Shown one piece after another: positions 6,480 through 21,334 of a stretch of DNA of 64,000 nucleotides. Made by a program: the position numbers and the translations under genes. The notes beneath the pieces are model-generated. The model ran no database searches. It saw nothing but the letters and a program-made list of their open reading frames with translations, and had not been told where the DNA came from. Source of the stretch: an uncultured Verrucomicrobiae bacterium (GTDB taxonomy: Bacteria; Verrucomicrobiota; Verrucomicrobiia; Palsa-1439). Position 1 is the first letter of the stretch, and every line of letters begins with the position of its first letter. Location of the stretch: the NCBI GenBank assembly GCA_963812605.1, contig CAWEWF010000014.1, forward strand, positions 736,001 through 800,000, written 5' to 3'.

Positions 6480-6487
6480 CTCGATCT

Positions 6488-7588: not shown

Positions 7589-7593
7589 ACCGC

Positions 7594-10051
7594 ATGTCCT
7601 ACGCACCGGAACTCGAACGCCTCCTTGGTCAGCTCATTAGCGGCGATATCCTGTTCTTTCCGATCCGGCACCATAGTCCGGCCTGTGCCTGGCATCTGCA
7701 GCGGCTAATCGAGCAGTACCGGCGAACGTCGATCCTGGTGGAAGGCCCGGCCAACTTTACTCCGCTTATCCCGTTGATCTTACATCCGCGTACCCGCACT
7801 CCGTTTGCGGTCTACACTACTTACGTGGACACAACCCGTCGCGTCAACAAAAGCCTGGCTAAGGAGCGTGGTGATTTCGGTCCGGCGCGCTTTGCGGCCT
7901 ACTACCCCTTCTGTAACTATTCGCCGGAGTTGGTCGCCTTGCGCTCGGGAATAGCGGCGGGCGCGCGTCTGCAGTTCATCGATCTGGATTATCCTCGCCA
8001 GGTTCTCTCCGAGAAGCCAGCGGATGACCTTCCCGCAGCGCCCCGGGTCGATTCGTTGCTGGAGGAGCGCCATCTCAAACGCAGCGCGTATTTGAAACAA
8101 TTGGCCAAGCGGACCGGCTGTCGGGACCAGGACGAGTTGTGGGACCACTTGTTCGAGGTGAACTATGCCGAGGTTTCGACCGAGACTTTTGTAAAGAACG
8201 TCGCCGCCTACTGCTACATGGCGCGCCACGACTACCTGCCGGACGAACTGGCTGCCGATGGAACACGGGCGCGCGAACAATCAATGGCCAAAGCCATCCG
8301 GGAGGAACGGGCGGCGGGCCGCAGCGGAAACATCCTCGTTGTGACCGGTGGGTTTCACACCGTGGTGCTGCCTGATATGCTTCACAGTGAAACTGACGAG
8401 CAGAAGTTGCCGATACCCGACGGCGAGAGCATTTCGCCGGTACTGATCCGCTACAGCTTTGACCAACTCGATTCGCTGAACGGTTACGCCGCCGGCATGC
8501 CATCCCCGCACTATTACGATCAGTTCTGGGATCGGGCGATCGAAGGCCAGCCGCGCCCGTTCCTGGAAACCGCCGCGAACCTGCTTGTCGAGATCGGCCG
8601 GCTGACACGGGAGAAGTCATTGCCGAACGCGCTGTCCACCGCTGATGAAATCGCAGCCCTGGAGCAGGCGCGGCGCCTGGCGCTCTTGCGCGGTCACGTG
8701 GGCCCGACCCGCGAAGATCTGTTGGATGGCGTGCGCAGTTGTTTCGTCAAGGGTTCGATGGATGCCGAAGGCGCGGTCTTGATGGGGATCGCGCGGCACG
8801 TTCTCTCCGGCACGGCCATCGGCGATATTCCTCCCGAAGCCGGTGCGCCACCGTTGGTGGAGAACTTCCGCGCGGTGGCCATCGAACTGCGTCTCAACAT
8901 TACCGAGTCCGTGCGCCGCAAGCTCTCGCTGGACATCTACCGGAGCGTCGCACACCGGACAATCAGCCGCTTCTTCCATAGTTTGAGTTTTCTTCAAGCG
9001 CCCTTTGCGGCCCTGGTCGCCGGGCCGAACTTCGTGCAGGGCACGGGACTGCAGCGCCTCCAGGAACACTGGGATTACTTCTGGAGTCCACGCACGGAGA
9101 GTGCCCTGGTCGAAGCCTCGGTGTATGGTTCGACGGTTGAAGAGGCTGCCGCCAACCGACTGCGACAGGACGTCATCAATTTGGAGCAACAGGGCCGCGG
9201 CCGTAGCGCCCTGGAAGCGGTCAGGATGCTGGTCATGGCGTGCCGGATGGGGCTGCATCGGCATACGAAGCAGTTGCTCGATCTCATCGCCGGCAATGTC
9301 GTGGAGGATTCCTCTTTCGTGTCCGTCGTGCAGGCAATGAACCAGCTTTTGTTGCTGTGGCAGTCGCGCGAGCCGTTGGAAGCGCATCATCTGCCGGAGA
9401 TTCCATCCCTGTTGCGCATCGCCTACGAACGCGCGTGTTATCTCGTGCGCGGCCTTGCCAGTTCTCCGCAGGAAGAAATCTACAGCGTCCTCCAAGCCTT
9501 CAACACCATTCGCGAAGCGCTGGCCGCCGTGAAAGACGATCTTCTGGACGCGGACCTCTTCTGGCAGGAAGTGGCCGCGCTGCCCGCTATCCGCCCGGCC
9601 AATTCGGCGGTAGTGGGTGGCGCCGCCGGGCTCGTTATACGGCGACAACCGCCTTAGCGAGAAGATGTTGCTCGAAATGATGCTCGGTCATTTGGATGCA
9701 GCAACCTCCGACAACCGATCAAAGGTCGGATTCGTCATCGGGCTGCTGCGAACGTGCCGGGAGGTGGCCTGGCAACAACACGCGTTGCTCGAAGCCATCG
9801 ACCAACTTCTTGCCTCGTGGGACGAGCACGAGTTCATTCGTCTTTTGCCGGAGCTGCGGATTGCGTTCGCCGGCCTCACACCGCGTGAGACCGACCGCGT
9901 GGCCGGTGCCGTTGCCGGGCTACACGGGCAAAAGGATCTCGGTGAGTTGATTCATTACGACATCAACCAGGCCGCTTTGTCCTTTCATCTGAACGTCACG
10001 CAGGAAGTGCTGCGCAGTCTGGAGCACGATCAATTGGCTGACTGGGCATGA
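7594..10051 (+). CDS. DUF5682/YehM-like protein, split by a frameshift near 9640
   Basis: IRHHSPACA, LVEGP, VTGGFH and GYAAGMPSP motifs; C-terminal part continues in ORF 9617-10051. Confidence 0.8.
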
Positions 10052-11178
10052 GTGTGATCTCCTCCAATCCGTTGAGCCGGTGGCGGCTGGTGCTGGGCAA
10101 GTATGCCGCCGATCGCCTGCCGTCCGGGCTCTCGGAGACGGAACAACGCATCGAGACCGCTCTCGATTATCTGTACTCACGCGAGTATCGGGGCCGCGGG
10201 ATGCGCGAAAAGGAAAAGGAGCCGGGCTCACTGGATGCCTCCCAGTTGAATATCCCCGCCTGGCTCGCCGAAGTACGGGAACTTTTTCCGAAAGAGACCG
10301 TGGAAGTCATCGAGAAACACGCGCTCGACCGTTATGGCATGACGGAATTGGTCACCGACCGGGAGGTCCTGAAAAAGCTCCAGCCAAATCTCGATTTACT
10401 CAAGGCCATCCTCACGTTCCGCGGGCATATGAAAGAAGACGTACTCGCCGAAGCGCGGCGGCTGGTGCGGCACGTTGTCGAGGAGATCAAACTGAAAATG
10501 GAACCGGAAGTTCGACGGGCTTTGGCCGGCAAGCTCAATCGATTTCGGCATTCCAATCTCAAGGTTGCGCAGAATTTCGACTGGCGCGGCTCGCTGCGAA
10601 AGAACCTCAAGAATTATGACCCGATCCGGCAGAAGATCATAGTGCAGGACGTGCAATTCTTCTCGCGCAACGAACGCCGGCTGCCCTGGCACATTATCCT
10701 GTGCATCGATCAGAGCGGCAGCATGGCCAGTTCGGTCATCCACAGCGCCGTGATGGCGGGTATTCTGACGAGTCTGCCCATGCTACGGGTGAAACTGGTC
10801 GTGTTCGACACTTCGATCGTCGATCTCAGCGAGCATGTGGACGATTCGGTGGAAGTTCTGATGAACGTACAACTCGGTGGCGGCACGGACATCGGGCAGG
10901 CGCTGACCTATTGCGAAGGTTTGGTCGAGAACCCCAAACGCACGGTCGTGGTGTTGGTCAGCGACTTCGCCGAAGGCGCATCGCCGGCGCGGCTGCTGGA
11001 TACATGCCGACGCTTGCGCGAGGCCGGCGTCATCCTGTTGGGACTGGCTGCGCTCGACGAACAAGCCAACGCGTCCTACGACGTGAAGATGGCCGAACGG
11101 CTGGCTGAAATCGGCATGGAAATCGCCGCACTGACCCCGAAACGATTGGCCCAATGGCTGGCGAAAGTCATATCCTAG
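10048..11178 (+). CDS. VWA domain protein (YehP/CoxE-like)
   Basis: RWRLVLG N-terminus, MIDAS motif DQSGSM, LGGGTDI, VLVSDFAEG. Confidence 0.88.
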   Translation: MSVISSNPLSRWRLVLGKYAADRLPSGLSETEQRIETALDYLYSREYRGRGMREKEKEPGSLDASQLNIPAWLAEVRELFPKETVEVIEKHALDRYGMTELVTDREVLKKLQPNLDLLKAILTFRGHMKEDVLAEARRLVRHVVEEIKLKMEPEVRRALAGKLNRFRHSNLKVAQNFDWRGSLRKNLKNYDPIRQKIIVQDVQFFSRNERRLPWHIILCIDQSGSMASSVIHSAVMAGILTSLPMLRVKLVVFDTSIVDLSEHVDDSVEVLMNVQLGGGTDIGQALTYCEGLVENPKRTVVVLVSDFAEGASPARLLDTCRRLREAGVILLGLAALDEQANASYDVKMAERLAEIGMEIAALTPKRLAQWLAKVIS

Positions 11179-13257
11179 GCAAACTGCAAACGCTGCTGGT
11201 GTCGTTCGATGACAGAGCGTTTGAAGCGTTGGCGAGCCGTGGGCTGTTGCGACGCGCGCAGAAGGATTTGGAGGGCGGCGTTCCTGTCGAGATTACCGGC
11301 GATGTGCCCGCTGGTCTTGCGGTCAAGGTTGCCAATTTCACTGTTACACTTCCCGAAGCTGGTCCCGCGAAAGCCAAATGCACGTGTCGTTCCCCGGGCA
11401 TCTGTCAGCATATTCTGATGGCCTGCCTGTTTCTCCAACGCACCGCTGCACTCCCCAAGCAAGCTGACCTCCTGACAGTGGAAGCGACTACTACCGGACG
11501 CGGGCGCGATGAACTGTTGGCATTCACCGCCGAGCAACTCGGGCAATGGGCTAGCAAGCCGGCATTGCGGGCGGCGTTCGCATTGCTCGCGGCGCAACCA
11601 CCAATCCAGATGGAAACCAAAGGCGCGATCATTGTCCGTTTCCCTGATCACGGTGCGGAGTGCCGCTATGTTGCCGGTGGCGGATTGGATGGAATGGTTG
11701 TGACCGCACCGCAGGGTGCTTCCATGAAGTTTGCCGTGGCAGCGGTGTTGGCGTTTCAGCAGTCCCAGGGCCTCAAGCTACCCGAAGCCGCAACGGCGGC
11801 ACCTGCCCTGGCGGAAACCCGGGGCGCACCACGCACGCGAGATGAAGTCCTCGGTACCAGCCGTCAACTCCTTGAAGAGTCTGTGTGCGTCGGTCTTTCC
11901 CACCTCTCGATCTCATTTGAGCAGCGGTTTGCCACGCTGGCGGTTTCCGCGTTGGGAGTCAATCTTCCTCGATTGTCACTGGCGCTGCGCGGAATTGGCG
12001 ACGAGATTTCGCTGATCGTCAAGCGCGACGCGCAGGCTGATGAAGCGCGCCTGCTGCAATCAGTGTCACGCGCCCACGCACTTTGTCATGCTTTGCGTAC
12101 AACCATTCCCCCGCCACGAGCCGACTTGATCGGGTGGCATCGCACCCAATATGAGGAGGTCGGCCATTTGGAACTACACGGTGTCGCCGCCTACCCGTGG
12201 CGGACAAGTTCTGGTTACGAAGGATTAACGGTTCTATTTTGGGAGAACACAGCCTGCCCGGTGGTACTCGTGGTCGGAAGCCCGACCACGCCACCAAGCC
12301 GGCAGTTTCAATCCCCGCGACCGCTACAAACAAGAAAGTCCATGGCAGGGCGCGACCAGTCCTGACCAGCTTTCGCGCTCGAGCTTCAAGCTCATGCATG
12401 CGCGACGGAATCCCCTGGGCCGATTGTCTGCTTCTGCGAAGAGCCGAGCGTTGATCGTTGGCCCGACATCGCCCGTGACGCTCAACTTTGGCAATAAAAT
12501 CTTCTCGCACTGGAGTTCTCTCCAGCAGTACGCGTGCGAACTCTCGCCTATCGGTCTCGGGGAGTTCAATCCACTCGAGGAGATTGTGGTCTTGCAACCG
12601 GCAAACTGGGGCCGGCGACATTTCGATCAGGTTTCACAGACTTTCACCTGGGCCATCCTCGACGAAGACGGTGACGCGCTGACCCTGGAAGTGCGGTTTA
12701 ACGACCTGAACGACATCACCATCAAGTTTCTTGAGAATCTCAATCCCCGCACTCCGCGCGTGAGCGCGTTAATCGCCAAAATCTCGCGTACCGGCCTGAC
12801 AATCGCTGCGCAACCGATTTCGTTGGTCATGCCGGATGCGACGGGCACGGCGATTCTGAATCTTGGATTCGATGCCGCGCCCCGCCAGACGGTCCTGGCA
12901 AAGATAAAAGACCTGGTAAACACCATGGCTGACGAAGAGCCTCTGCTGGCTGATGAAGAGGGCGAGGCAGAGGAGTTCGTTCTTCTGGGTTCCAGCTTCG
13001 ATCAGCTCGTCACCAATCTGGAATCATTGCTTCAGAAGATCGCGGAACGCGGCTGCCGAACTCTTACTACGGTAGCCAGCCATGAACTGAGCGCGACCGC
13101 CGCAAACATGGAAGCCGCAGGGTTCAACATTCTTTCAAAAGCCATCCATCACTTGATCGGCAACACAAAGTGGCCAGCGCCGGATCTGCTCCAACTTCGC
13201 TACCTCTGCCTCGTTCATCGTCAGGCCGGTCAGCGAGTTGCTGCGCGCAGGACATGA
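11154..13257 (+). CDS. SWIM zinc-finger protein (YehQ-like), frameshifted near 12260
   Basis: CTCRSPGICQH SWIM motif; coding continues into ORF 12394-13257; start codon uncertain. Confidence 0.72.
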
Positions 13258-13373: not shown

Positions 13374-13402
13374 TTGACGAATGACCCTTGGGAAGTTAGC
13401 TT
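13374..13402 (+). promoter_or_regulatory. Putative sigma70 promoter of the tRNA/RNA-repair locus
   Basis: TTGACG (13374-79), 17-nt spacer, TAGCTT (13397-402), A-tract upstream. Confidence 0.6.
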
Positions 13403-13424
13403 ACGCAAGTTTTTGAGGACAGAC

Positions 13425-13568
13425 ATGCGAACGCTAAGACCACAACGTAAATGCGCGACAGCGAGGATGCTTATATCCTCGTTGACCCGTAGTGGTCTGT
13501 TCCCGTCCTTTGTGTCATTAGGCCATTACGTCGCCAAAGATAACACGGGAGGGCCGGGAAGCAGGTAG
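13425..13568 (+). CDS. Putative 47-aa leader peptide (attenuator uORF)
   Basis: GAGGA Shine-Dalgarno at 13415-19; MRTLRPQRKC...GGPGSR*; last codons are complementary to the terminator 5' arm. Confidence 0.6.
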   Translation: MRTLRPQRKCATARMLISSLTRSGLFPSFVSLGHYVAKDNTGGPGSR

Positions 13569-13591
13569 TTGTCACGTCCAGATGTTCCGTG

Positions 13592-13624
13592 AACCCTGCT
13601 TCCGAAAGGAACGCAGGGTTTTTT
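13592..13624 (+). terminator. Intrinsic terminator (attenuator)
   Basis: AACCCTGC-TTCC-GAAA-GGAA-C-GCAGGGTT followed by a T tract. Confidence 0.85.
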
Positions 13625-13687
13625 ATTGTCGCTATGCCGAAAAACGAAAGGAATCACAGTTAAAATGAAGATTTAAGGTGAAAAGAA

Positions 13688-14057: not shown

Positions 14058-14131
14058 GCGCTTGTGGTTTAGCAGCAGAACACCGCGTTGCCAACGCGGA
14101 GGTGCGGGTGCGACTCCCGCCGAGCGCTCCA
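14058..14131 (+). tRNA. tRNA-Gly(GCC)
   Basis: Cloverleaf, acceptor GCGCTTG/CGAGCGC, U73, CCA encoded, T loop TGCGACT. Confidence 0.88.
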
Positions 14132-14142
14132 ATTCCAGTGCT

Positions 14143-14216
14143 ACGGCGTGCGCCAGTTCGCGCAGTTGAGTCTCCAAAACTCGGCGTGGTTGGGGCGGCA
14201 CCAACACGCCGTGCCA
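14143..14216 (+). tRNA. tRNA-Trp(CCA), degenerate D arm
   Basis: Acceptor ACGGCGT/ACGCCGT, G73, anticodon loop CTCCAAA, T loop GGCGGCA, CCA. Confidence 0.75.
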
Positions 14217-14220
14217 GTTT

Positions 14221-14296
14221 GGGGACACATGTGCCGTAGCGGCGAGACTGCCTTGCAAGCAGTTTGTGGTGGGTGCAACTCCCACTGTCTCCACCA
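14221..14296 (+). tRNA. tRNA-Ala(TGC)
   Basis: GGGGACA/TGTCTCC with G3:U70, A73, anticodon loop CTTGCAA, CCA. Confidence 0.85.
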
Positions 14297-14308
14297 GTTC
14301 GGACCCGC

Positions 14309-14399
14309 GGGTGATGTTCCGGTCAACGGTCTGTAGAACCGTGGTCGCTAAAACAAGGTCGGAAGACGACGAGTGGAGCGTTACCACCATCACCCACCA
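14309..14399 (+). tRNA. tRNA-Tyr(GTA)-like, no D arm, enlarged variable arm
   Basis: GGGTGAT/ATCACCC, A73, CCA; anticodon arm ACGGT-CTGTAGA-ACCGT; T loop AGCGTTA. Confidence 0.7.
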
Positions 14400-14406
14400 G
14401 TTTCAC

Positions 14407-14482
14407 GACTCGGAAGAGGAACAGCAGACTCGCCTGCCTGTCTAGCGGGAGATAACGGGGGCAGCACCCGTCCGGATCGCCA
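14407..14482 (+). tRNA. tRNA-Asp(GTC)
   Basis: CCTGC-CTGTCTA-GCGGG, G73, T loop GGCAGCA, CCA. Confidence 0.8.
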
Positions 14483-14487
14483 TTTCG

Positions 14488-14562
14488 CGGGCACGAGGAA
14501 GATAGCAATCCGCCCGGTTTGGAACCGGGAGACACTCGGGGCAGAACCGAGGTGCCCGACCA
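14488..14562 (+). tRNA. tRNA-Pro(TGG)
   Basis: CGGGCAC/GTGCCCG, A73, CCCGG-TTTGGAA-CCGGG, CCA. Confidence 0.87.
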
Positions 14563-14569
14563 ATTTCCA

Positions 14570-14645
14570 CTCCCCGTAGTTCAGATTATAGAATGCCGAG
14601 CTTCTAACTCGGAGGTCGCAGGTGCGAGTCCTGCCGGGGAGACCA
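14570..14645 (+). tRNA. tRNA-Arg(TCT)
   Basis: CTCCCCG/CGGGGAG, CCGAG-CTTCTAA-CTCGG, CCA. Confidence 0.88.
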
Positions 14646-14653
14646 GTTTTGAT

Positions 14654-14728
14654 TCCATCGTGGGATAACAGTAGTCCACCGTCCTGTTAAGGCGAGAGGT
14701 CGTGGTGCGAATCCACGCGATGGAGCCA
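14654..14728 (+). tRNA. tRNA-Asn(GTT)
   Basis: TCCATCG/CGATGGA, G73, anticodon loop CTGTTAA, CCA. Confidence 0.87.
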
Positions 14729-14729
14729 G

Positions 14730-14821
14730 GGAGTCCAGGCCGATACAAGCTGGCGGCACTCGTCTTGAAAACGAGATCTGGCGCAAGCCAGAGGCGGGAG
14801 CATTACCTGCGGACTCCGCCA
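14730..14821 (+). tRNA. tRNA-Ser(TGA)
   Basis: GGAGTCC/GGACTCC, G73, long variable arm TCTGGC-GCAA-GCCAGA, CCA. Confidence 0.88.
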
Positions 14822-14853
14822 ATTCAGAAACAACAACCGAAGGAGATAAGGCC

Positions 14854-15033
14854 ATGTACACCACCAAGACAGAAACGGTCGCTCGGATCCCCATCCAACG
14901 CTGGCGAAATACGCGCTTTGTCGTACCGGTGCGGGAAACGCGACGCCATCGGTCGCTGGCAATACCGGATCCGCCACACCGGAAGAGGACGCGTCGCGGA
15001 TCATTCACCGAAACTGACGCGCGCGCCCCATAA
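14854..15033 (+). CDS. Small Arg-rich protein (59 aa) inside the tRNA array
   Basis: AAGGAG Shine-Dalgarno at 14840-45; MYTTKTETVARIPIQRWRNTRFVVPVRETRRHRSLAIPDPPHRKRTRRGSFTETDARAP*; too short for the ORF track. Confidence 0.5.
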   Translation: MYTTKTETVARIPIQRWRNTRFVVPVRETRRHRSLAIPDPPHRKRTRRGSFTETDARAP

Positions 15034-15075
15034 CGCGCATTGTTTACCATGCCTGTCGCAAACGATGCGCCCTTC

Positions 15076-15149
15076 CCTTCCGTAGCTCAAGAGCAGAGCG
15101 GTCGGCTGATAACCGACAGATCACGGAGCGTTACCGTGCGGAAGGACCA
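15076..15149 (+). tRNA. tRNA-Ile(GAT)
   Basis: CCTTCCG/CGGAAGG, GTCGG-CTGATAA-CCGAC, T loop AGCGTTA, CCA. Confidence 0.87.
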
Positions 15150-15151
15150 AC

Positions 15152-15226
15152 GGCTCGGAAGCTCTCGGAGGAGAGCGTCCCGCTGAAAACGGGAAAGGGG
15201 CGGTGCAACTCCGTCGCGAGCCACCA
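15152..15226 (+). tRNA. tRNA-Phe(GAA)
   Basis: TCCCG-CTGAAAA-CGGGA, A73, CCA. Confidence 0.86.
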
Positions 15227-15235
15227 CTTTGTTTT

Positions 15236-15309
15236 GTTCTCGAAGTGTAAGAGATCTGCACGTCCCGTTGCGAACGGGAAGGTTCGGGGTGCGAATCCCT
15301 GCGAGAACA
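15236..15309 (+). tRNA. tRNA-Arg(GCG)
   Basis: GTTCTCG/CGAGAAC, TCCCG-TTGCGAA-CGGGA; CCA not encoded. Confidence 0.83.
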
Positions 15310-15338
15310 CTTTACCCCGAATTCTTTCGGGCCAGTTT

Positions 15339-15415
15339 GCCTCTGTGGCCGAGACTGTCCAGGCACGGCTTTCGTAAAGCCGACCACATCGGTGCAATTC
15401 CGATCGGAGGCCCCA
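15339..15415 (+). tRNA. tRNA-Thr(CGT)
   Basis: GCCTCTG/CGGAGGC, CGGCT-TTCGTAA-AGCCG, CCA. Confidence 0.85.
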
Positions 15416-15422
15416 GTTTGCT

Positions 15423-15497
15423 GGTGACCGTGGTGTAAGAGCAGCACCGCAGACCGTGAATCTGCAGGAGCGGGTGTAAGTCCCGTCGGTCGCCCCA
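15423..15497 (+). tRNA. tRNA-His(GTG)
   Basis: G-1:C73 pair, GCAGA-CCGTGAA-TCTGC, CCA. Confidence 0.87.
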
Positions 15498-15505
15498 ATT
15501 CGTTC

Positions 15506-15578
15506 GTCCCGCGAGGGAGCCAGTGAACCCGCCTGTCTGCAAAACAAGCACTGTGCGGTGCGACACCGCAGCGGGACT
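15506..15578 (+). tRNA. tRNA-Cys(GCA)
   Basis: GTCCCGC/GCGGGAC, U73, anticodon loop CTGCAAA; followed by TCA. Confidence 0.8.
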
Positions 15579-15588
15579 TCAATTTCAT

Positions 15589-15663
15589 GCCTCCAAAGAA
15601 TAGACAGCGATTCGCGTCATCGGTAATGACGACAGCACAGTGCGATTCTGTGTGGAGGCTCCA
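15589..15663 (+). tRNA. tRNA-Thr(GGT)
   Basis: GCCTCCA/TGGAGGC, CGTCA-TCGGTAA-TGACG, CCA. Confidence 0.85.
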
Positions 15664-15670
15664 ATTCGAT

Positions 15671-15749
15671 GCGGCAGTGATGTTGAACAGAATGAGCATG
15701 GCTGCCTTCCAAGCAGCTCGTGTGGGTGCGACTCCCATCTGCCGCACCA
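15671..15749 (+). tRNA. tRNA-Gly(TCC)
   Basis: GCGGCAG/CTGCCGC, GCTGC-CTTCCAA-GCAGC, CCA. Confidence 0.86.
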
Positions 15750-15755
15750 CTTCGA

Positions 15756-15829
15756 CGCGGGTGAGTAGCGTGGCACTACAGGAGGCTCATACCCTCCAGA
15801 CGCCGGTTCAATTCCGGCACCCGCTACCA
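15756..15829 (+). tRNA. Initiator-like tRNA-Met(CAT)
   Basis: C1/U72 mismatch, GGAGG-CTCATAC-CCTCC; the only array tRNA with a canonical TTC T loop, paired with a GG D loop. Confidence 0.82.
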
Positions 15830-15836
15830 ATTTTCT

Positions 15837-15911
15837 CGCTCCGTAGCACAAACGCAGTGCGCCGGTTTCATACGCCGGAGATTGCCAGTGCGAACCTGGC
15901 CGGAGCGACCA
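15837..15911 (+). tRNA. Elongator tRNA with CAT anticodon (Met; Ile2 not excluded)
   Basis: CGCTCCG/CGGAGCG, CCGGT-TTCATAC-GCCGG, CCA. Confidence 0.8.
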
Positions 15912-15915
15912 GTTC

Positions 15916-15990
15916 GGGTCGCAAGCATTGCAAGCGATGCAGCGGATTCTTACTCCGCAGAACACGGGGCGGTACCGTGGCGGCCCACCA
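15916..15990 (+). tRNA. tRNA-Lys(CTT)
   Basis: GGGTCGC/GCGGCCC, GCGGA-TTCTTAC-TCCGC, T loop GGCGGTA, CCA. Confidence 0.84.
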
Positions 15991-15998
15991 ATCCATTC

Positions 15999-16073
15999 GC
16001 CTGCGTGGCCGAAAAGTCAGGCACCGGTTTTGTAAACCGACCCATGCAGGTGCGACTCCTGCCGCAGGCTCCA
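15999..16073 (+). tRNA. tRNA-Thr(TGT)
   Basis: GCCTGCG/CGCAGGC, anticodon loop TTTGTAA, CCA. Confidence 0.86.
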
Positions 16074-16079
16074 ATTGAT

Positions 16080-16154
16080 TGCCTCGTGGTGTAACCAGCG
16101 GCACATCCGTCTCTGAAACGGAAAGTCCGGGTGCAATTCCAGGCGAGGCAGCCA
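16080..16154 (+). tRNA. tRNA-Gln(CTG)
   Basis: U1:A72, G73, TCCGT-CTCTGAA-ACGGA, CCA. Confidence 0.87.
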
Positions 16155-16161
16155 TCGTCAC

Positions 16162-16236
16162 GCCGCACTAGCCCAATGCAGAGGCACCAGTCTTAGAAAC
16201 TGGACAGTCCTGGTGCAAATCCAGGGTGCGGTACCA
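16162..16236 (+). tRNA. tRNA-Leu(TAG), short variable loop
   Basis: CCAGT-CTTAGAA-ACTGG, 5-nt variable loop, A73, CCA. Confidence 0.85.
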
Positions 16237-16240
16237 ATTC

Positions 16241-16316
16241 GCTCCCGTAGCTCAAAGTATAGAGCGCCCGGCTTCGAACCGGGAGGTTGCAGGTGAGATT
16301 CCTCCCGGGAGCACCA
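16241..16316 (+). tRNA. tRNA-Arg(TCG)
   Basis: GCTCCCG/CGGGAGC, CCCGG-CTTCGAA-CCGGG, T loop TGAGATT, CCA. Confidence 0.86.
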
Positions 16317-16325
16317 ACGTCCGAA

Positions 16326-16397
16326 GCTCGTGTAGCCCAACGCAGAGGCAGTCGGCTTAAACCCGATCCAGTGCCGGTGCAATCCCGGCCACGAGCA
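16326..16397 (+). tRNA. tRNA-Leu(TAA), short variable loop
   Basis: GCTCGTG/CACGAGC, GTCGG-CTTAAAC-CCGAT; followed by CCG. Confidence 0.84.
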
Positions 16398-16402
16398 CCG
16401 AT

Positions 16403-16478
16403 ACCGACGTAGCCCAACAGCAGAGGCACCAAGCTCAAACCTTGGCCAGTGTGGGTGCGACTCCCTCCGTCGGTACCA
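16403..16478 (+). tRNA. tRNA-Leu(CAA), short variable loop
   Basis: ACCGACG/CGTCGGT, CCAAG-CTCAAAC-CTTGG, CCA. Confidence 0.85.
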
Positions 16479-16484
16479 ATTCAC

Positions 16485-16577
16485 GGAGCATGAACCGGGC
16501 AAGCGAACCGGGACTGTTTGCTAAACAGATCGACCCGCATCCAGCGGATTGAGGCGCAAGCCCTCCGTGCTCCGCCA
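16485..16577 (+). tRNA. tRNA-Ser(GCT)
   Basis: GGAGCAT/GTGCTCC, G73, anticodon loop TTGCTAA, long variable arm, CCA. Confidence 0.82.
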
Positions 16578-16587
16578 GTTCCTTCTC

Positions 16588-16676
16588 CCGCCCGTAGTTC
16601 AAAGAGAACCGTCCGCCTTATAAGCGGAATCGCACTGGATGAGTGCCAGGCCTCGGAGCGTTACCGAGCGGGCGGA
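16588..16676 (+). tRNA. tRNA with TAT anticodon (Ile UAU) and a long variable arm
   Basis: CCGCCCG/CGGGCGG, TCCGC-CTTATAA-GCGGA, variable arm GCACT-GGATG-AGTGC; no CCA. Confidence 0.8.
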
Positions 16677-16677
16677 T

Positions 16678-16755
16678 GGCCGTGATCGCGAAGCAGCTCC
16701 AGCGACCTGTCTTTCAAGCAGGATCCAGCGGGTGCGAGACCCGCCACGGCTGCCA
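16678..16755 (+). tRNA. tRNA-Glu(TTC)
   Basis: GGCCGTG/CACGGCT, G73, CCTGT-CTTTCAA-GCAGG, CCA. Confidence 0.85.
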
Positions 16756-16757
16756 AC

Positions 16758-16834
16758 GGACTCGAAGCCACAGCAGACCGGCACCGGACTTTTAATCCGG
16801 CAGGGTGAGGTTGCAACTACCTCCGGGTCCACCA
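16758..16834 (+). tRNA. tRNA-Lys(TTT)
   Basis: GGACTCG/CGGGTCC, CCGGA-CTTTTAA-TCCGG, CCA. Confidence 0.86.
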
Positions 16835-16860
16835 ATTTCGCTCGTATTGCCCAATGCGTT

Positions 16861-16934
16861 TGCCGAGTCGTCCAATAGTAGGACATCTCGCTTTGAACGA
16901 GAAGATCGTGGTGCGAATCCACGCTCGGCAGCCA
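16861..16934 (+). tRNA. tRNA-Gln(TTG)
   Basis: TGCCGAG/CTCGGCA, G73, TCTCG-CTTTGAA-CGAGA, CCA. Confidence 0.88.
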
Positions 16935-16939
16935 ATTCC

Positions 16940-17013
16940 CGCCCGATGGTGAAATAGGATCACGCCTGGCTTACATCCAGGAATCCGGGGAGCATAACCT
17001 CGTCGGGCGACCA
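16940..17013 (+). tRNA. tRNA-Val(TAC)
   Basis: CGCCCGA/TCGGGCG, CCTGG-CTTACAT-CCAGG, T loop AGCATAA, CCA. Confidence 0.86.
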
Positions 17014-17023
17014 GTTTGATGAT

Positions 17024-17109
17024 TTGCGGAAGTGAGACGGGAGTTCCTTCGGAGCTCAATCACCGAGCACTGGCCTGTTAAGCCAGCCTCCCGGCAGGAT
17101 ACTCCGCAA
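17024..17109 (+). ncRNA. Y RNA-like gene 1 (D arm plus GTT anticodon arm module)
   Basis: Ends pair (TTGCGGA/TCCGCAA); shares the AGTGAG..GGAGTT.CTTC scaffold; lies upstream of TROVE. Confidence 0.7.
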
Positions 17110-17123
17110 TGCTCTTTCGGCGA

Positions 17124-17255
17124 TTTGAGGTAGTGAGATCGGAGTTACTTCGCATGACAAGCGAGAGGTTGCCGGTTCGATTCCGGTCGCGGCCAGCAAT
17201 GGCTGCGTAGCTCAATGGTAGAGCGCTTACGTCTCTGATCGATTTTCTCCTCAAA
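17124..17255 (+). ncRNA. Y RNA-like gene 2 (YrlA-type permuted tRNA-like domain)
   Basis: Scaffold stem plus T arm GCCGG-TTCGATT-CCGGT, loop-closed acceptor CGCGGCCA-GCAA-TGGCTGCG, D arm GCTC-AATGGTA-GAGC. Confidence 0.82.
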
Positions 17256-17258
17256 ACT

Positions 17259-17358
17259 TTTTGGGGTAGTGAGATTCGGGTTACTTCATGGTCCTGTTGG
17301 TTCGAATCCAACCTTCAGCCTTCCGGCTGATGTTCCCGGGTCGGTTTACTCCTCAAAA
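17259..17358 (+). ncRNA. Y RNA-like gene 3 (T arm plus acceptor-like hairpin)
   Basis: Same scaffold; GTTGG-TTCGAAT-CCAAC, then TCAGCC-TTCC-GGCTGA. Confidence 0.75.
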
Positions 17359-17380
17359 CAATCCAAACACAACCAAATCC

Positions 17381-17477
17381 GTGAGGCAGTGAGGTCAGGG
17401 CTACTTCGAAACTGGGATGGGTGAAAACCCCACCAGTCTGGCCGCAAGGCCGTTTCCCCGGCCGGTTTACTCCTCAC
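17381..17477 (+). ncRNA. Y RNA-like gene 4 (two-hairpin module)
   Basis: Same scaffold GTGAGG-CAGTGAGGTCAGGG-CTACTTC...CCCCGGCC-GGTTTACT-CCTCAC; ends 21 nt before the TROVE start codon. Confidence 0.7.
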
Positions 17478-17498
17478 ACAACCTGAAAGGAGCACGCA

Positions 17499-18931
17499 AT
17501 GAGATTCAACCTGCTCAAGAGACGCCGCACGGGCGCCGATACCGTCAACTTCGCTGGAGGCGAGGCGTTCACGGAATCCCCAAAGCTGGAACTGGCGGCG
17601 CTAATGTTGACCGCGACACTGCAGAACGACTTTTATCGTTCCGCCAACGCCACTGCTACGCGCTTGAAGGAACTCATCGGCAAGATCGACGACAAGAAGT
17701 TTGTCGCCAAGACTGCGCTCTACGCCCGCAACAAGGCGGGGATGCGTTCGGTTTCACATCTGACTGCCGGTGAGTTGGCCCGCACCGTGAAGGGGCAGCC
17801 GTGGACTGCGAAGTTCTACGAACAAGTGGTCCGCCGCCCGGATGACGCGTTGGAAATCCTCGCGTACTACCTGGCGATGCACGGTCGGCCCATCCCAAAC
17901 GCGTTGAAGAAGGGCCTGGGCGCTGCCTTGGCGCGTTTCGACGAGTACCAGTTGGCCAAGTATCGCAAGAGCGCTGCGGAAATCTCGCTCGTGGACGCGG
18001 TAAACCTCGTTCACCCGAGACACACCGAGGCATTGAAGAAGCTGGTCAACGGCACTCTCGCGCCGGCAGAAACCTGGGAAACCAGACTGACGGAGGCGGG
18101 TGCGGCGGCGGAGTCGGAAGACGAACTCGCCGAGTTGAAGAAGGACGTGTGGACGAAGCTGATCGAGAGTCGCAAGCTCGGTTACTTCGCGCTGTTGCGC
18201 AACCTGCGCAACATTCTCCAAGCCGCGCCTGAGTCAATGGATGCGGCCATCACAATGTTGACGGATGAGAGGCTCATCCGGCGCTCGTTGGTGCTGCCAT
18301 TCCGTTATCCTCACGGCGCTCGAAGCAATGCAGGCGACTAAGCCTGCCGAATGTCAGCAAGGTACTCGTTGCTCTCAGCGAGGCGGTGGACAAGTCTCTT
18401 GTTAACGTGCCGCAGTTCGATGGCAAGACGCTGGTTGCGCTGGATGGCTCTGGTTCGATGCAGGGGCGTCCCCTGAAGATCGGCTCGCTGTTTGCCGCAA
18501 CGCTGGCGAAGGCCAACGATGCGGACGTAATGCTGTTCAGTAACGACGCGAAGTATGTCTCCCTGAACCACCGTGACAGCACGTTGACGCTGGCGCAGTG
18601 GCTGGAGAGCCAGGCCCAGTCGGCGGGAACCGACTTCCATTGCATCTTCCAGACGGCGAAGCGCGGTTATGATCGCGTGATCATCCTGTCGGATATGCAG
18701 GGTTGGATCGGTCACTACGCTCCGACCAAGACCTATGAGGCGTACAGGAGACAGTTCGGGGTTGACCCGAAGGTTTTCTCGTTCGATCTCAAGGGTTACG
18801 GCACGTTGATGTTCCCCGAACGCAGCATCTATTGTTTGGCCGGCTTCTCCGACAAGACAATGGACATGCTGAAGTTCCTCGACTCGGATAAGTCCGCATT
18901 GCTTCGAGAAATCGAGGCCGTCGAGTTGTAA
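17499..18931 (+). CDS. rsr: Ro60/Rsr TROVE-domain RNA-binding protein with C-terminal VWA; two apparent 1-nt insertions near 18309 and 18340
   Basis: VNFAGGEAF, YARNKAGMRS, FDEYQLAKY, ETWET, YFALLRNLRN, LPFRY, DGSGSM, GTDF, IILSDMQ. Confidence 0.88.
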
Positions 18932-18935
18932 CCTC

Positions 18936-18978
18936 GGGAGCTTCCTGACCACGGTTGGGAAGCTCCCTTCTCTTTCCA
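18936..18978 (+). terminator. Hairpin or possible terminator after TROVE
   Basis: GGGAGCTTCC...GGAAGCTCCC followed by TTCTCTTT. Confidence 0.55.
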
Positions 18979-19063
18979 GTAATTTGAAGCATCCGGCAAC
19001 GACAACCGAGCTGCGTCGTCTGTCATTACACAAATCAACCCGCTCGGAGAAAGGAGCCACATC

Positions 19064-19307
19064 GTGAGATTCAACATCCTGAAGAGACGCAGCACGAACG
19101 CCGATTCCGTCAACTTTGCCGGCGGGGAGGCATTTACCGAGTCGCCAAAGGTGGAACTGGCGGCGCTGATGTTGGGCGCAGGCAACCAGCTTGGTCTTGG
19201 GCAACCACCATTGACATTGGTTGCGTTTTCACTAATCCGCAATCGCGAAGTTCCTCGACTCGGACAAGACGGCGCTGCTGCGAGAAATCGAAGCGGTGGA
19301 GTTGTAA
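19064..19307 (+). pseudogene. Internally deleted second TROVE copy
   Basis: MRFNILKRRSTNADSVNFAGGEAFTESPKVELAALML matches the TROVE N-terminus; 19248-19307 encodes KFLDSDKTALLREIEAVEL*, matching its C-terminus. Confidence 0.85.
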
Positions 19308-19380
19308 ACAAACCCGGTGGAGGAGTAGCTTGAAGGCGTGCTCCTCCATCCCATTGAATGATAGGAAAGGAAACACCAAC

Positions 19381-20550
19381 ATGAAGCCAGTAATCTTCGG
19401 TCAGCATGACGAGGCGACGATCCGGCAGATCGAAACCTGCCTGGCGGCGGGCGGCGAAAAGGCCGTGCTGTGCGCGGATGGCCACAAGGGCTACGCCCAA
19501 CCAATCGGCGGCGTGGTCGCCTACAAGGACAAGGTGTCGATCTCGGGTGTCGGTTTCGACATCGCCTGCGGCAACCTTGCCATCCGCACCGACGCCATGG
19601 AAGCCGACATCCAGCCAAAGATGGACGCGATCATGGACGACGTGGTGCGCCACATCTCGTTCGGCGTCGGCCGCACGAACAAGAACAGGGTTGACCATGA
19701 ACTGTTCGACGACGAAGCGTGGAACATTCGCGCGATTGGCCAACTGAAGCACCTGGCGCAGGAGCAGCTCGGCACGGTCGGCAGCGGCAACCATTATGTG
19801 GATGTCTTTGCCGATGAGGGTGGCGTGGTCTGGGTCGGCGTGCACTTCGGTTCGCGCGGGCTCGGTCACCGGTCGGCGACGCACTTCCTGAAGGTTGCGG
19901 GTGGAAAGGACGGCATGGATGTACCACCTACCGTTCTCGATCTGCGGGTTCAGGTCGGTCAGGATTACCTCGCGGCGATGAGGCTGGGCGGTCGTTACGC
20001 CTACGCCGGCCGCGAGTACGTCGCCCGTTTCGTCGTGCGTGAGATTCTCCAGGCGAACATCGTGGAAGAAGTTCACAACCACCACAACTTCGCCTGGGAA
20101 GAAGAACACTACGGCGAAAAGTTCTGGGTCGTGCGCAAGGGCGCTACGCCGGCGTTTCCCGGTCAAAAGGGATTCGTCGGCGGCAGCATGGGCGACGACG
20201 CCGTAATCATCGAGGGCATTGACACGGCAAGATCGCGCGAGGCCTTGTTCTCGACCGTCCACGGCGCTGGACGCGTCATGTCGCGCACGGCAGCCAAGGG
20301 CAAGTTCGAGAACGTCGGCGGAAAGCGTATCCGCCAACCCGGGCGAATCCGTCATGATGAAATGATGGCCTGGCTCAAGAACAAGGGCGTCGTCCTGCGA
20401 GGTGGCGACCTTGACGAAGCGCCCCAGGCCTATCGTCGCCTGACGGATGTACTCGCGGCACAGGGTCGCACGATTCGCGTTCTCCATACGCTCCGCCCGC
20501 TGGGCGTGGCCATGGCCGGACGAAACATCGTCGATCCCTACAAGGACTGA
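19381..20550 (+). CDS. rtcB: RtcB RNA ligase
   Basis: ADGHKGY, GFDIACG, GTVGSGNHY, HFGSRGLG, HNHHNFAW, VVRKGATPA, GGSMG, STVHGAGR, DEAPQAY. Confidence 0.95.
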   Translation: MKPVIFGQHDEATIRQIETCLAAGGEKAVLCADGHKGYAQPIGGVVAYKDKVSISGVGFDIACGNLAIRTDAMEADIQPKMDAIMDDVVRHISFGVGRTNKNRVDHELFDDEAWNIRAIGQLKHLAQEQLGTVGSGNHYVDVFADEGGVVWVGVHFGSRGLGHRSATHFLKVAGGKDGMDVPPTVLDLRVQVGQDYLAAMRLGGRYAYAGREYVARFVVREILQANIVEEVHNHHNFAWEEEHYGEKFWVVRKGATPAFPGQKGFVGGSMGDDAVIIEGIDTARSREALFSTVHGAGRVMSRTAAKGKFENVGGKRIRQPGRIRHDEMMAWLKNKGVVLRGGDLDEAPQAYRRLTDVLAAQGRTIRVLHTLRPLGVAMAGRNIVDPYKD

Positions 20551-20617
20551 AGGCAAGCTGCCCGCGGTTGGAGCGATGTCAGCCACATCCTGTGCATTGT
20601 TCCAACCTCCCCTTTTC

Positions 20618-20692
20618 GCTCCCATAGCTCAACAGACAGAGCCTTCCTCTCCTAAGGGAAAGATTTGGGTGCAACTCCTGATGGGAGCACCA
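20618..20692 (+). tRNA. tRNA-Arg(CCT), array type (T loop TGCAACT)
   Basis: GCTCCCA/TGGGAGC, TTCCT-CTCCTAA-GGGAA, CCA. Confidence 0.86.
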
Positions 20693-20746
20693 TTTATTTG
20701 GCGATCACAACAAATAGCGAACACCATCGAGGAACAGAGGAATGAT

Positions 20747-21334
20747 ATGAACGACATACTAAATAAAGCGACGGTATTGGTACTGAATCGCAACTGGCAG
20801 GCCATCAACGTGCGCACGCCGGCAGAAGCGTTTTGCCAGATGGCAATCAACGCGGCAACCGGCTTGGACATCGAGGGCGAGGATCGCATGGGTCCCGTCC
20901 CGTGGGATGGGTGGCTCAAGCTGCCGATTCGGCCCCACGATAACGCCGTCGGCACACCACGCGGACGTATTCGTGTGCCCACGGTCATCGTGTGCGCGAA
21001 CTACGCGTGGGTGCCCCAGAAGCGACCGAAGCTCTCCGCGCGGAACATCCGCGAGCGCGACGGTCACCGCTGCCAATACACCGGCAAAGTATTGCGCGCG
21101 GAAGAGGGCAGCATTGACCACGTCCTTCCCCGCTCACGCGGCGGGAAGACGACATGGGAGAACTGTGTCTTCGCCAGCAAGCAGATCAATACAAAGAAAG
21201 GCAATCGACTGCCCCAGGAAGCTGGGCTGCAACTCTTGGCGCGTCCCCGAGTACCGCGGGCGCTGCCGGTGACCCTGACCATTCGCAATGCCCACGGTAT
21301 TCGAGACTGGAAGCCCTTTCTGGGTGATTCATGA
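20747..21334 (+). CDS. HNH endonuclease (McrA-like)
   Basis: VLVLNRNWQA, RDGHRCQYTG, SIDHVLPRSRGGKTTWENCV...NTKKGNRLP. Confidence 0.9.
   Translation: MNDILNKATVLVLNRNWQAINVRTPAEAFCQMAINAATGLDIEGEDRMGPVPWDGWLKLPIRPHDNAVGTPRGRIRVPTVIVCANYAWVPQKRPKLSARNIRERDGHRCQYTGKVLRAEEGSIDHVLPRSRGGKTTWENCVFASKQINTKKGNRLPQEAGLQLLARPRVPRALPVTLTIRNAHGIRDWKPFLGDS

Follow-up and report, generated by a model that had tools for sequence, protein, structure and literature searches.

Why should a bacterium whose own tRNA genes are dispersed and canonical carry a second set for all 20 amino acids, packed into a single array, and why should the tRNAs of that set be built differently? The question is raised by a stretch of 64,000 nucleotides (hereafter the window) from an uncultured Verrucomicrobiae bacterium of the Palsa-1439 lineage (GenBank assembly GCA_963812605.1, contig CAWEWF010000014.1, positions 736,001 to 800,000 of the forward strand), in which a tRNA array lies between positions 14058 and 20692. 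The initial annotation of this DNA had suggested that the set could read the whole code with little dependence on tRNA modification enzymes, as an emergency pool would, an idea that we regard as partly supported. We propose, from comparison of the sequences, that the array represents a large lineage of tRNAs with an A18-G55 elbow and retained identity marks, and this we consider to be the main new finding.

Default ARAGORN, run on 14058-20692, reports 18 tRNAs for only 9 amino acids; this undercount was dropped as a refutation of a full set, since relaxed scans, Rfam and folding recover 33 units. ARAGORN at lowered thresholds parses 28 units on the plus strand, sequence inspection combined with RNAfold adds five more (Tyr GTA, Asp GTC, Pro TGG, Ser GCT and Lys TTT), and the gathering score of Rfam RF00005 is reached by 20 units, including one (16758-16831) from the whole-genome search. 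All 33 lie on the same strand, 32 within 14058-17013 and Arg CCT at 20618-20692, and CAT is the sole anticodon present more than once among these 32 elongators and one initiator-like tRNA. The inventory of the initial annotation is borne out: all 20 amino acids and an initiator-like tRNA (Met CAT with a 1:72 mismatch) are represented, five of the eight four-codon boxes have a single UNN tRNA (Val TAC, Pro TGG, Ala TGC, Ser TGA and Leu TAG) while Thr, Gly and Arg have more, Arg CGN codons are served by GCG and TCG with no ACG, and a TAT anticodon is present at 16588-16676. The 32 units occupy 2,956 bases, all on the plus strand, with spacers mostly of 1-28 nt except for a 254-nt gap that holds a small open reading frame (ORF), orf59, and in density the array is an L-array (at least 20 tRNA genes, at least 2 per kb, same strand, short spacers). 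A pattern of three consecutive T-arm/CCA units matches the window once and 0 of 100 shuffles; the array is not a chance pattern.

The departure from the ordinary lies in the body plan of these tRNAs. The contact between G18 and pseudouridine 55 (Psi55) at the elbow is near-universal in cytosolic tRNAs, and the host conforms: all 46 of its tRNAs outside the array have a TTC T-loop and a GG D-loop, and CCA is encoded in 41 of them. In the array, G55 is found in 32 of the 33 units (27 of the 28 parsed by ARAGORN and the five hand-parsed units, the latter with G55-C56), and the T-loops of 25 ARAGORN-parsed units read N-G-C-R (mostly TGCGA or TGCAA, some AGCGT or GGCGG). Among the 28 parsed units GG occurs in three D-loops and TTC in one T-loop, and C56 is retained in 30 of the 33 units. 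The canonical elongator combination of G18 G19 with U54 U55 C56, present in 46/46 host tRNAs, is not that of the array. Every parsed anticodon loop of the array has A37, where the host has G37 in three Pro, Leu GAG and TAG, Arg CCG and TCG, His and both Gln tRNAs, and A34 occurs nowhere in the array. The combination of A18-G55, A37, GCG and UCG for CGN and UAU for AUA would leave the array tRNAs unable to receive inosine (I34), lysidine (k2C34), 1-methylguanosine (m1G37), Psi55 and 2'-O-methylguanosine (Gm18), and these tRNAs differ from those of the host at the sites used by proteins that recognise canonical tRNAs. The modification-sparing idea is strengthened at positions 34 (Arg and Ile), 37, 55 and 18, and weakened for the UNN boxes.

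This body plan is not peculiar to the window. Our search pattern asked for three GTGCRA T-arms in a row, with CCA 15 nt further on in each unit, and made no demand on the D-loop; it gave at least 120 matching stretches in one-genome-per-species contigs and 48 in viral contigs. Among the genome matches listed, 64 loci contain at least 4 G55 tRNAs; 57 of these stand in records with Verrucomicrobiota titles, and one (L123), with 11 tRNAs of the G55 type, comes from an isolate, Verrucomicrobium sp. BvORR034. The viral contigs, up to 266 kb in length, yield 31 of 48 stretches with at least 4 G55 tRNAs. The label "viral" rests on the source collection's own classification, since ten ORFs near the viral G55 arrays matched only a DNA methyltransferase, an HNH protein and a PHROG "RNA-binding protein", and no phage hallmark. 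Across 1,621 tRNAs of the pattern-match loci the two halves of the elbow covary (G55 without GG, 1,034; G55 with GG, 114; U55 with GG, 277; U55 without GG, 16), and the association persists when only the 28 loci that contain both classes are considered (19/219 versus 236/10). Where the D-loop is 7 nt long, it shows A (96%) followed by G (98%) in the G55 class and G (98%) followed by G (92%) in the U55 class, and positions 54 and 58 covary as well (U:A 882, A:U 135). We read this as A18-G55 probably substituting for G18-U55, with the outer G19-C56 pair retained. We found no description of a G55/A18 tRNA, of elbow variants among phage tRNAs or of Verrucomicrobial arrays in the literature searched, although the tRNA lists of two studies (PMC8421152, PMC4758250) may hold such arrays uncommented.

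The marks by which synthetases know their tRNAs are kept. G3.U70 is found in 34 of 42 G55-class Ala tRNAs as compared to 7 of 1,100 others, and the discriminator bases of the G55 class are close to invariant (Asn G 52/52, Cys U 44/44, Asp G 24/25, Pro A 53/53, Val A 45/45, Leu A 140/144, Trp G 20/22). In the window the discriminator equals that of the host isoacceptor in 31 of 33 units by inspection, and the Ala unit has G3.U70 in one of two possible registers. The array units are therefore best regarded, at the level of sequence, as real tRNAs with standard bacterial identity marks that would be substrates for aminoacylation. Features of the anticodon are shared as well: in the pattern-match loci listed, Arg GCG outnumbers ACG by 40 to 1, TAT occurs 19 times, the Leu anticodons CAG, GAG and TAG occur 29, 22 and 5 times, and A37 is found in Arg (96/96), His (56/57), Gln (70/75) and Leu (127/144), with Pro instead having G (36/53). 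Lineage Phe tRNAs, too, often have G37 (41/59).

A DNA search among the genomes of 40 relatives found the array in 3 of 17 same-genus genomes (G003, G010 and G015) and in two genomes of other families in the same order (G025 and G026), with flanks that differ between carriers. Such a patchy distribution is consistent with horizontal transfer, and judged by it the array is a horizontally acquired, mobile element. G55 T-loops, AG-type D-loops and encoded CCA are common to all five related arrays, as is Arg GCG with TCG and no ACG, and the long-armed TAT tRNA is retained in the three same-genus arrays. When we set the stems of tRNAs from the window against those of tRNAs with matching anticodons in four related arrays, we counted 202 double-compensatory changes, 81 single changes that keep the pair, 138 breaks and 1,027 unchanged pairs, counts that lean towards structure because a cloverleaf finder chose both sets. 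An HNH gene lies downstream of all five related arrays, and its homologues occur on 71 plasmid records, including Nostoc (11), Mycolicibacterium (4), Mycobacterium (4) and also Acaryochloris. Deposited plasmids and phages gave single-tRNA matches only and no close DNA relative of the array. The ends of the island were not fixed by empty-site comparison, as the left and right flanks lie on separate contigs in array-less relatives, and neither an integrase nor a phage structural family was detected among the scanned flanking ORFs.

Does the host need such a set? Its genome (4.17 Mb in 15 contigs, about 90% complete) encodes the 46 canonical tRNAs elsewhere, dispersed, which makes the array supernumerary. 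The array does not simply duplicate them, because the housekeeping set uses GNN, CNN and UNN anticodons in all five boxes that are UNN-only in the array, together with three CAT, and has neither GCG nor TAT. The enzymes that the array might spare are present: TilS (TIGR02432, 169.3 bits against a cut-off of 93.6) and TadA (NF008113, 157.5 bits against 150) both score above their NCBIfam cut-offs, and TrmD and TruB are also encoded. Housekeeping tRNA-Arg ACG, Thr TGT and Gly TCC were not among the assembled tRNAs of this roughly 90% complete genome. They are probably missing through an assembly gap; for Arg ACG we take this view because TadA is present and CGU/CGC make up 4.4% of host codons. 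Mycoplasmas and organelles decode by superwobble with one UNN tRNA per box, without TilS or TadA and without an A34 tRNA-Arg, and Mycoplasma mobile has a tRNA-Ile(UAU) for AUA. There, however, the enzymes have been lost genome-wide, whereas here the host keeps TadA and TilS beside an accessory sparing set; the UAU tRNA of the window, unlike theirs, has a long variable arm.

The closest known kind is the L-array of the trn operon on plasmid delta of Anabaena (Nostoc) sp. PCC 7120 (PMC8421152, PMC4758250), which is likewise long, dense, same-strand, non-periodic and supernumerary, with one tRNA per anticodon, a patchy distribution, an adjoining homologous HNH gene (of the all8564 kind) and a link to rtcB. 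It shares short Leu tRNAs (there 75-78 nt) and UNN-only boxes (Ala TGC, Val TAC, Gly TCC, Thr TGT, Pro TGG and Leu TAG). The available text of PMC8421152 reports that 23 of its 26 tRNAs are charged in vivo, that they are found in polysomes, and that the array is induced by translational stress and co-regulated with rtcB; it also describes known L-arrays as mostly silent and with pseudogenes, and its authors raise a role as a sponge. The differences are as marked as the likeness: the Anabaena array has canonical TTC/GG elbows (22 of 23 parsed units), Arg ACG, G37 in Pro, His and Gln TTG, and no TAT, whereas that of the window has G55 in 32 of 33 units, Arg GCG, A37 throughout and a UAU tRNA, as well as Y-RNA-like genes, Ro60 and RtcB inside the array. 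One unit of the trn operon, Glu CTC (L188 2507-2584), is of the G55 type, with the T-loop TGCAACT and a D-loop without GG. The plasmid pCBMA213_1 of Mycolicibacterium sp. CBMA 213 (PMC5966550) similarly places about 30 tRNAs for nearly all amino acids, with a related HNH gene inside the array, on a mobile replicon, but has TTC T-loops and GG D-loops in all 29 parsed plus-strand units, and Arg ACG. Because both arrays have canonical elbows and Arg ACG, we place that of the window, on its sequence features, within the L-array kind and in a separate lineage with a different tRNA body plan.

The features of the window are collected in the table below.

Table. Features in and around the tRNA array (window coordinates; hand-parsed units have approximate ends where marked ~)
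Feature	Position	Strand	Details
Promoter-like TTGACG box, structured element of ~230 nt and intrinsic-terminator hairpin	13385..13640	+	Directly upstream of array; fold z -3.05
tRNA array, 32 genes	14058..17013	+	ARAGORN, Rfam, RNAfold, inspection
Array order, part 1			Gly GCC, Trp CCA, Ala TGC, Tyr GTA, Asp GTC, Pro TGG, Arg TCT, Asn GTT, Ser TGA, [orf59]
Array order, part 2 (after orf59)			Ile GAT, Phe GAA, Arg GCG, Thr CGT, His GTG, Cys GCA, Thr GGT, Gly TCC
Array order, part 3			Met CAT (initiator-like), Met CAT, Lys CTT, Thr TGT, Gln CTG, Leu TAG, Arg TCG, Leu TAA
Array order, part 4			Leu CAA, Ser GCT, Ile TAT, Glu TTC, Lys TTT, Gln TTG, Val TAC
Tyr GTA	~14309-14399	+	Hand-parsed, RNAfold
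Asp GTC	~14405-14480	+	Hand-parsed, RNAfold
Pro TGG	~14488-14563	+	Hand-parsed, RNAfold z -3.18
orf59, small arginine-rich ORF, 59 aa	14854..15033	+	Shine-Dalgarno-like AGGAG upstream; inside array
Initiator-like tRNA-Met	15756..15829	+	C1 x U72 mismatch; canonical elbow
Ser GCT	~16484-16580	+	Hand-parsed, RNAfold z -2.49
UAU-anticodon tRNA	16588..16676	+	89 nt; 5-nt D-loop; long variable stem-loop; A73; no encoded CCA; z -2.97
Lys TTT	16758-16835	+	Hand-parsed, RNAfold z -1.70
Four Y-RNA-like modules	17018-17122, 17124-17262, 17262-17372, 17378-17492	+	Folds, each with a bulged terminal stem
rsr (Ro60), two ORFs in different frames	TROVE 17499-18341; Ro60 vWA 18386-18931	+	Pfam
Terminator-like hairpin	18936..18967	+	14 pairs and T-rich tail; directly after rsr
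rtcB RNA ligase	19330..20550	+	Pfam RtcB PF01139, 211.9 bits
tRNA-Arg CCT, 33rd unit	20618..20692	+	ARAGORN and Rfam; T-loop TGCAACT
HNH endonuclease (putative)	20720..21334	+	Pfam HNH_5/HNH_4/HNH; homology from ~residue 91 of ORF 20447-21334

In most units the acceptor stem has 7 bp and the anticodon and T stems have 5 bp each, a plan from which Tyr, Asp and Trp deviate, with Tyr and Asp the weakest of the 33. The Tyr unit has an 8-bp acceptor, a T-arm and a hairpin that carries the GTA anticodon, yet its D-arm is truncated and its minimum-free-energy fold is not a cloverleaf; the Asp unit forms a cloverleaf but folds no better than shuffles (z +0.57), and the Trp unit has an odd D-arm. The initiator-like Met is the only unit with both a canonical TTC T-loop (TTCAATT) and a GG D-loop. 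That a canonical-elbow Met is always an initiator was considered and found to be a weak rule, the 1:72 mismatch occurring in 7 of 21 canonical CAT units as compared to 4 of 47 G55 CAT units. Encoded CCA is absent from the TAT and Cys units. The UAU tRNA is of a type that recurs across the lineage, 24 of 28 being 89-94 nt long; in 25 copies from lineage loci (e.g., L012 8114-8205) we noted the D-loop AAAGA, the variable stem-loop GCACU-AGAUG-AGUGC and A73 (22 of 25). The three Leu units of the window (16162-16478) are 74-76 nt long and have no long variable arm, as is also seen in 84 of 144 G55-class Leu tRNAs and in all three Leu tRNAs of the Anabaena trn operon (L188 1054-1590). The His and Thr GGT units of the window have C33 in place of the near-universal U33, and C33 is found in 156 of the 1,142 G55-class tRNAs of the lineage. 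Elsewhere, the G025 array (L015 10774-10848) includes a 75-nt unit with the amber-reading anticodon CTA and a G55-type T-loop, TGAGAAT, and another lineage locus has a TTA-anticodon unit; both are possible suppressor tRNAs. The small orf59 is 58.6% identical over 58 aa to an ORF at the equivalent position in the G025 array (L015 10307-10477), the one of the five related arrays in which it was found, and matches no Pfam family.

Between the 32nd tRNA (Val TAC) and the 33rd (Arg CCT), which is followed by the HNH gene, lies a module of Y-RNA-like genes, rsr and rtcB. In the second Y-RNA-like module (17124-17262) there is a tRNA-like domain, whose D-arm carries the canonical GG and whose T-arm carries TTCGA. 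The YrlA family (RF02553) matches the window at 40.6 bits (E 2.8e-6), below its gathering score of 69, and such sub-threshold matches recur at the array-rsr junction in all five related loci. The two rsr ORFs score 70 bits (TROVE) and 27.4 bits (vWA_Ro60). TROVE and vWA stand in a single frame in L131 and L118. They do so too in a contig of a related strain, one of the short, low-depth contigs obtained from two sets of DNA reads, which shows a net change of -2 nt at 18310-18339. We accordingly take the split, near 18310-18386, to reflect either a true frameshift or misassembly. The RtcB is 81% identical to that of L131 and 70% to that of L016, and is present in one of the five related arrays; neither RtcA nor RtcR was found among the scanned ORFs of 416-26639. 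For neighbour counts we used 69 genome loci (the 64 pattern loci, each of up to 8 kb, with L012-L016 at 16-17 kb) and 31 viral loci. By clustering, HNH proteins accompany 35 genome and 8 viral loci, Ro60 27 and 6, and RtcB 19 and 0; by tblastn the 69 genome loci give 35, 17 and 17. A de novo search for recurrent neighbours returned no further Pfam-named family except a Band_7 protein (9 loci). The arrangement resembles bacterial Ro60/Y RNA modules and the rsr-yrlBA-rtcBA operon of Salmonella, which in the available text of PMC4201824 and PMC7790460 has Y-RNA-like genes, one of them tRNA-like, then the TROVE/vWA Ro60, then RtcB; it differs in the absence of RtcA and RtcR among the scanned ORFs and in YrlA matches below the gathering score. 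We found no description of a repair module set between the tRNAs of an array in the literature searched.

Directly upstream of the array, the element at 13385-13640 can be aligned across six genomes and also precedes the array in G003, G010 and G025. It was rejected as an array-specific leader or attenuator, the same element occurring without the array in G001, G004 and G006. No Rfam family matches it at E<=1 and its small ORFs match no Pfam family; the element could represent a small RNA gene that has no name as yet, or else a landmark for insertion of the array. Further upstream, 2727-12365 holds a cluster of genes for a DUF4132/HEAT protein (1,250 aa), an AAA_5 MoxR-type ATPase, a DUF5682 protein, a CoxE-like VWA protein and a SWIM zinc-finger protein, which we take to resemble MoxR-vWA conflict systems.

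What, then, might such an array be for? Starting from what was observed (the genes and anticodons present, the body plan and its identity marks, the patchy distribution and the neighbours that recur), we favour a mobile stand-by decoding pool coupled to tRNA repair, to which we give somewhat better than an even chance. The array would form a mobile unit of about 8 kb (~13.6-21.3 kb of the window) that provides its host with a second tRNA set, and it appears to be co-transcribed with the Y-RNA-like genes and Ro60, followed by RtcB and a homing-type HNH gene. When ribotoxins, phage conflict or translational stress leave the housekeeping pool damaged or under-modified, the array would supply tRNAs that, once expressed, charged and admitted to the ribosome, read CGN through GCG and UCG, AUA through the UAU tRNA and the UNN boxes by four-way reading of U34; RtcB would reseal cut tRNAs, Ro60 and Y RNA would handle misfolded ones, and the HNH endonuclease would spread the unit. 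Precedent supports this: the Anabaena array, so far as the available text goes, is stress-induced, charged, present on polysomes and co-regulated with rtcB (PMC8421152).

Several observations weigh against this proposal of a stand-by pool. By Crick wobble the 33 anticodons read only 51 of the 61 sense codons. Ten NNY codons are left over, among them GCC, GTC and CTC, the commonest Ala, Val and Leu codons of the host; together they account for 16.6% of codon usage in 1,667 long host ORFs, and all 61 become readable only with four-way reading of U34. A convincing CmoB was not found in the host, where only weak, partial methyltransferase matches were seen. The UNN-only boxes are not a conserved design, because the anticodon sets of related arrays differ (with Ala GGC, Leu CAG and GAG, Glu CTC, Arg CCG and Ser CGA among them), and they are not conserved lineage-wide either; UNN-only boxes are also seen in the Anabaena array, with its canonical elbows and Arg ACG. 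The structurally deviant Tyr, Asp and Trp units are each the sole unit for their amino acid, rsr is frameshifted in the present assembly, no sigma-70-like promoter was found ahead of the array on the plus strand, and the same body plan is common on viral contigs, so that its features may have evolved for the needs of phages and not for host stress. The inference of the initial annotation, that the set could read the whole code with little dependence on modification, is accordingly divided: the lack of A34, UAU for AUA, A37 and G55 all speak for it, whereas the UNN boxes are not conserved, four-way U34 would be needed for 16.6% of codons, several sole representatives are structurally weak, and evasion of nucleases predicts the same sequence pattern.

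That last explanation is the main rival, and sequence alone cannot separate it from backup decoding. The array would then be phage-derived anti-defence cargo whose altered elbow, A37, lack of A34, short Leu tRNAs and odd loops escape defence or toxin nucleases that target tRNAs, or an enzyme with which the phage itself destroys host tRNAs, with modification independence as a by-product. The body plan in 31 of 48 viral pattern stretches (on contigs up to 266 kb), C33 in 156 of 1142 G55 tRNAs, the 84 of 144 Leu tRNAs without a long arm and the accompanying HNH homing endonucleases all fit, as does the escape of phage tRNAs from anticodon nucleases, PARIS, retron effectors and Septu, as described in the available parts of PMC10264068, PMC13056530, PMC11464382, PMC11555353 and PMC13096335. 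The likeness to such phage sets is that of extra tRNAs, on phage contigs, that differ at positions recognised by proteins; yet the published cases, in the available text of PMC10264068, PMC11464382 and PMC11555353, are single tRNAs with anticodon-loop changes, and here a whole 20-amino-acid set has a changed elbow. The documented escape mutations sit in anticodon loops, not elbows, and our analysis identified no nuclease that recognises G18 or U55. The array also lies outside any recognisable prophage, its scanned flanking ORFs giving no integrase or phage structural match, and RtcB (19 of 69 genome loci, 0 of 31 viral loci) and Ro60 (27 of 69) keep company with the genome loci, which fits a host-side repair context. 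We consider evasion as the driver of the body plan a possible but distinctly less probable account.

Two further explanations set decoding aside. A selfish relic, silent and decaying in its host and persisting only through HNH-driven spread, would agree with the frameshifted rsr, the several weak units, the TAT and Cys units without CCA, the lack of a detected promoter ahead of the array, and the mostly silent, pseudogene-bearing L-arrays reported in the available text of PMC8421152; but the 202 double-compensatory changes keep the stems across related arrays, the identity marks are conserved lineage-wide, and the rsr frameshift may stem from misassembly, the metagenome bin being of low coverage, so that we find this unlikely. 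We find it more doubtful still that the units act outside translation, their tRNA shape serving as a decoy, a sponge or a substrate (for toxin RNases, Ro60/Y RNA, RtcB signalling or tRNA-dependent enzymes). Their setting among Y-RNA-like genes and Ro60, an elbow that departs from the form usually seen by the ribosome and processing enzymes, and the sponge role raised for the Anabaena array (PMC8421152, available text) could be so explained, but a decoy needs neither a full anticodon set for 20 amino acids nor an Ala-restricted G3.U70 (34/42 versus 7/1100) and amino-acid-specific discriminators, and the G19-C56 outer pair and encoded CCA are kept.

In its widest form, which we put forward only tentatively, our proposal is that there may exist in nature a second, parallel tRNA architecture: a complete 20-amino-acid set with an A18-G55 elbow, no A34, no C34-Ile and mostly no G37, which phages carry and which, in Verrucomicrobiota and other bacteria, resides on HNH-driven islands, used by ordinary synthetases and ribosomes, and invisible to, or independent of, the enzymes and nucleases that read canonical features. 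If this is true, a carrier could keep translating while the standard tRNA pool is destroyed or left unmodified. An A18-G55 lineage with kept identity would reveal which elbow contacts translation needs, and would supply tRNA scaffolds that differ from host tRNAs at enzyme-recognised sites. The purpose of long arrays and of full phage sets would become testable as backup decoding, escape from immunity or modification independence, and the physical coupling to Ro60, Y RNA and RtcB would link spare tRNAs with tRNA repair in one unit.

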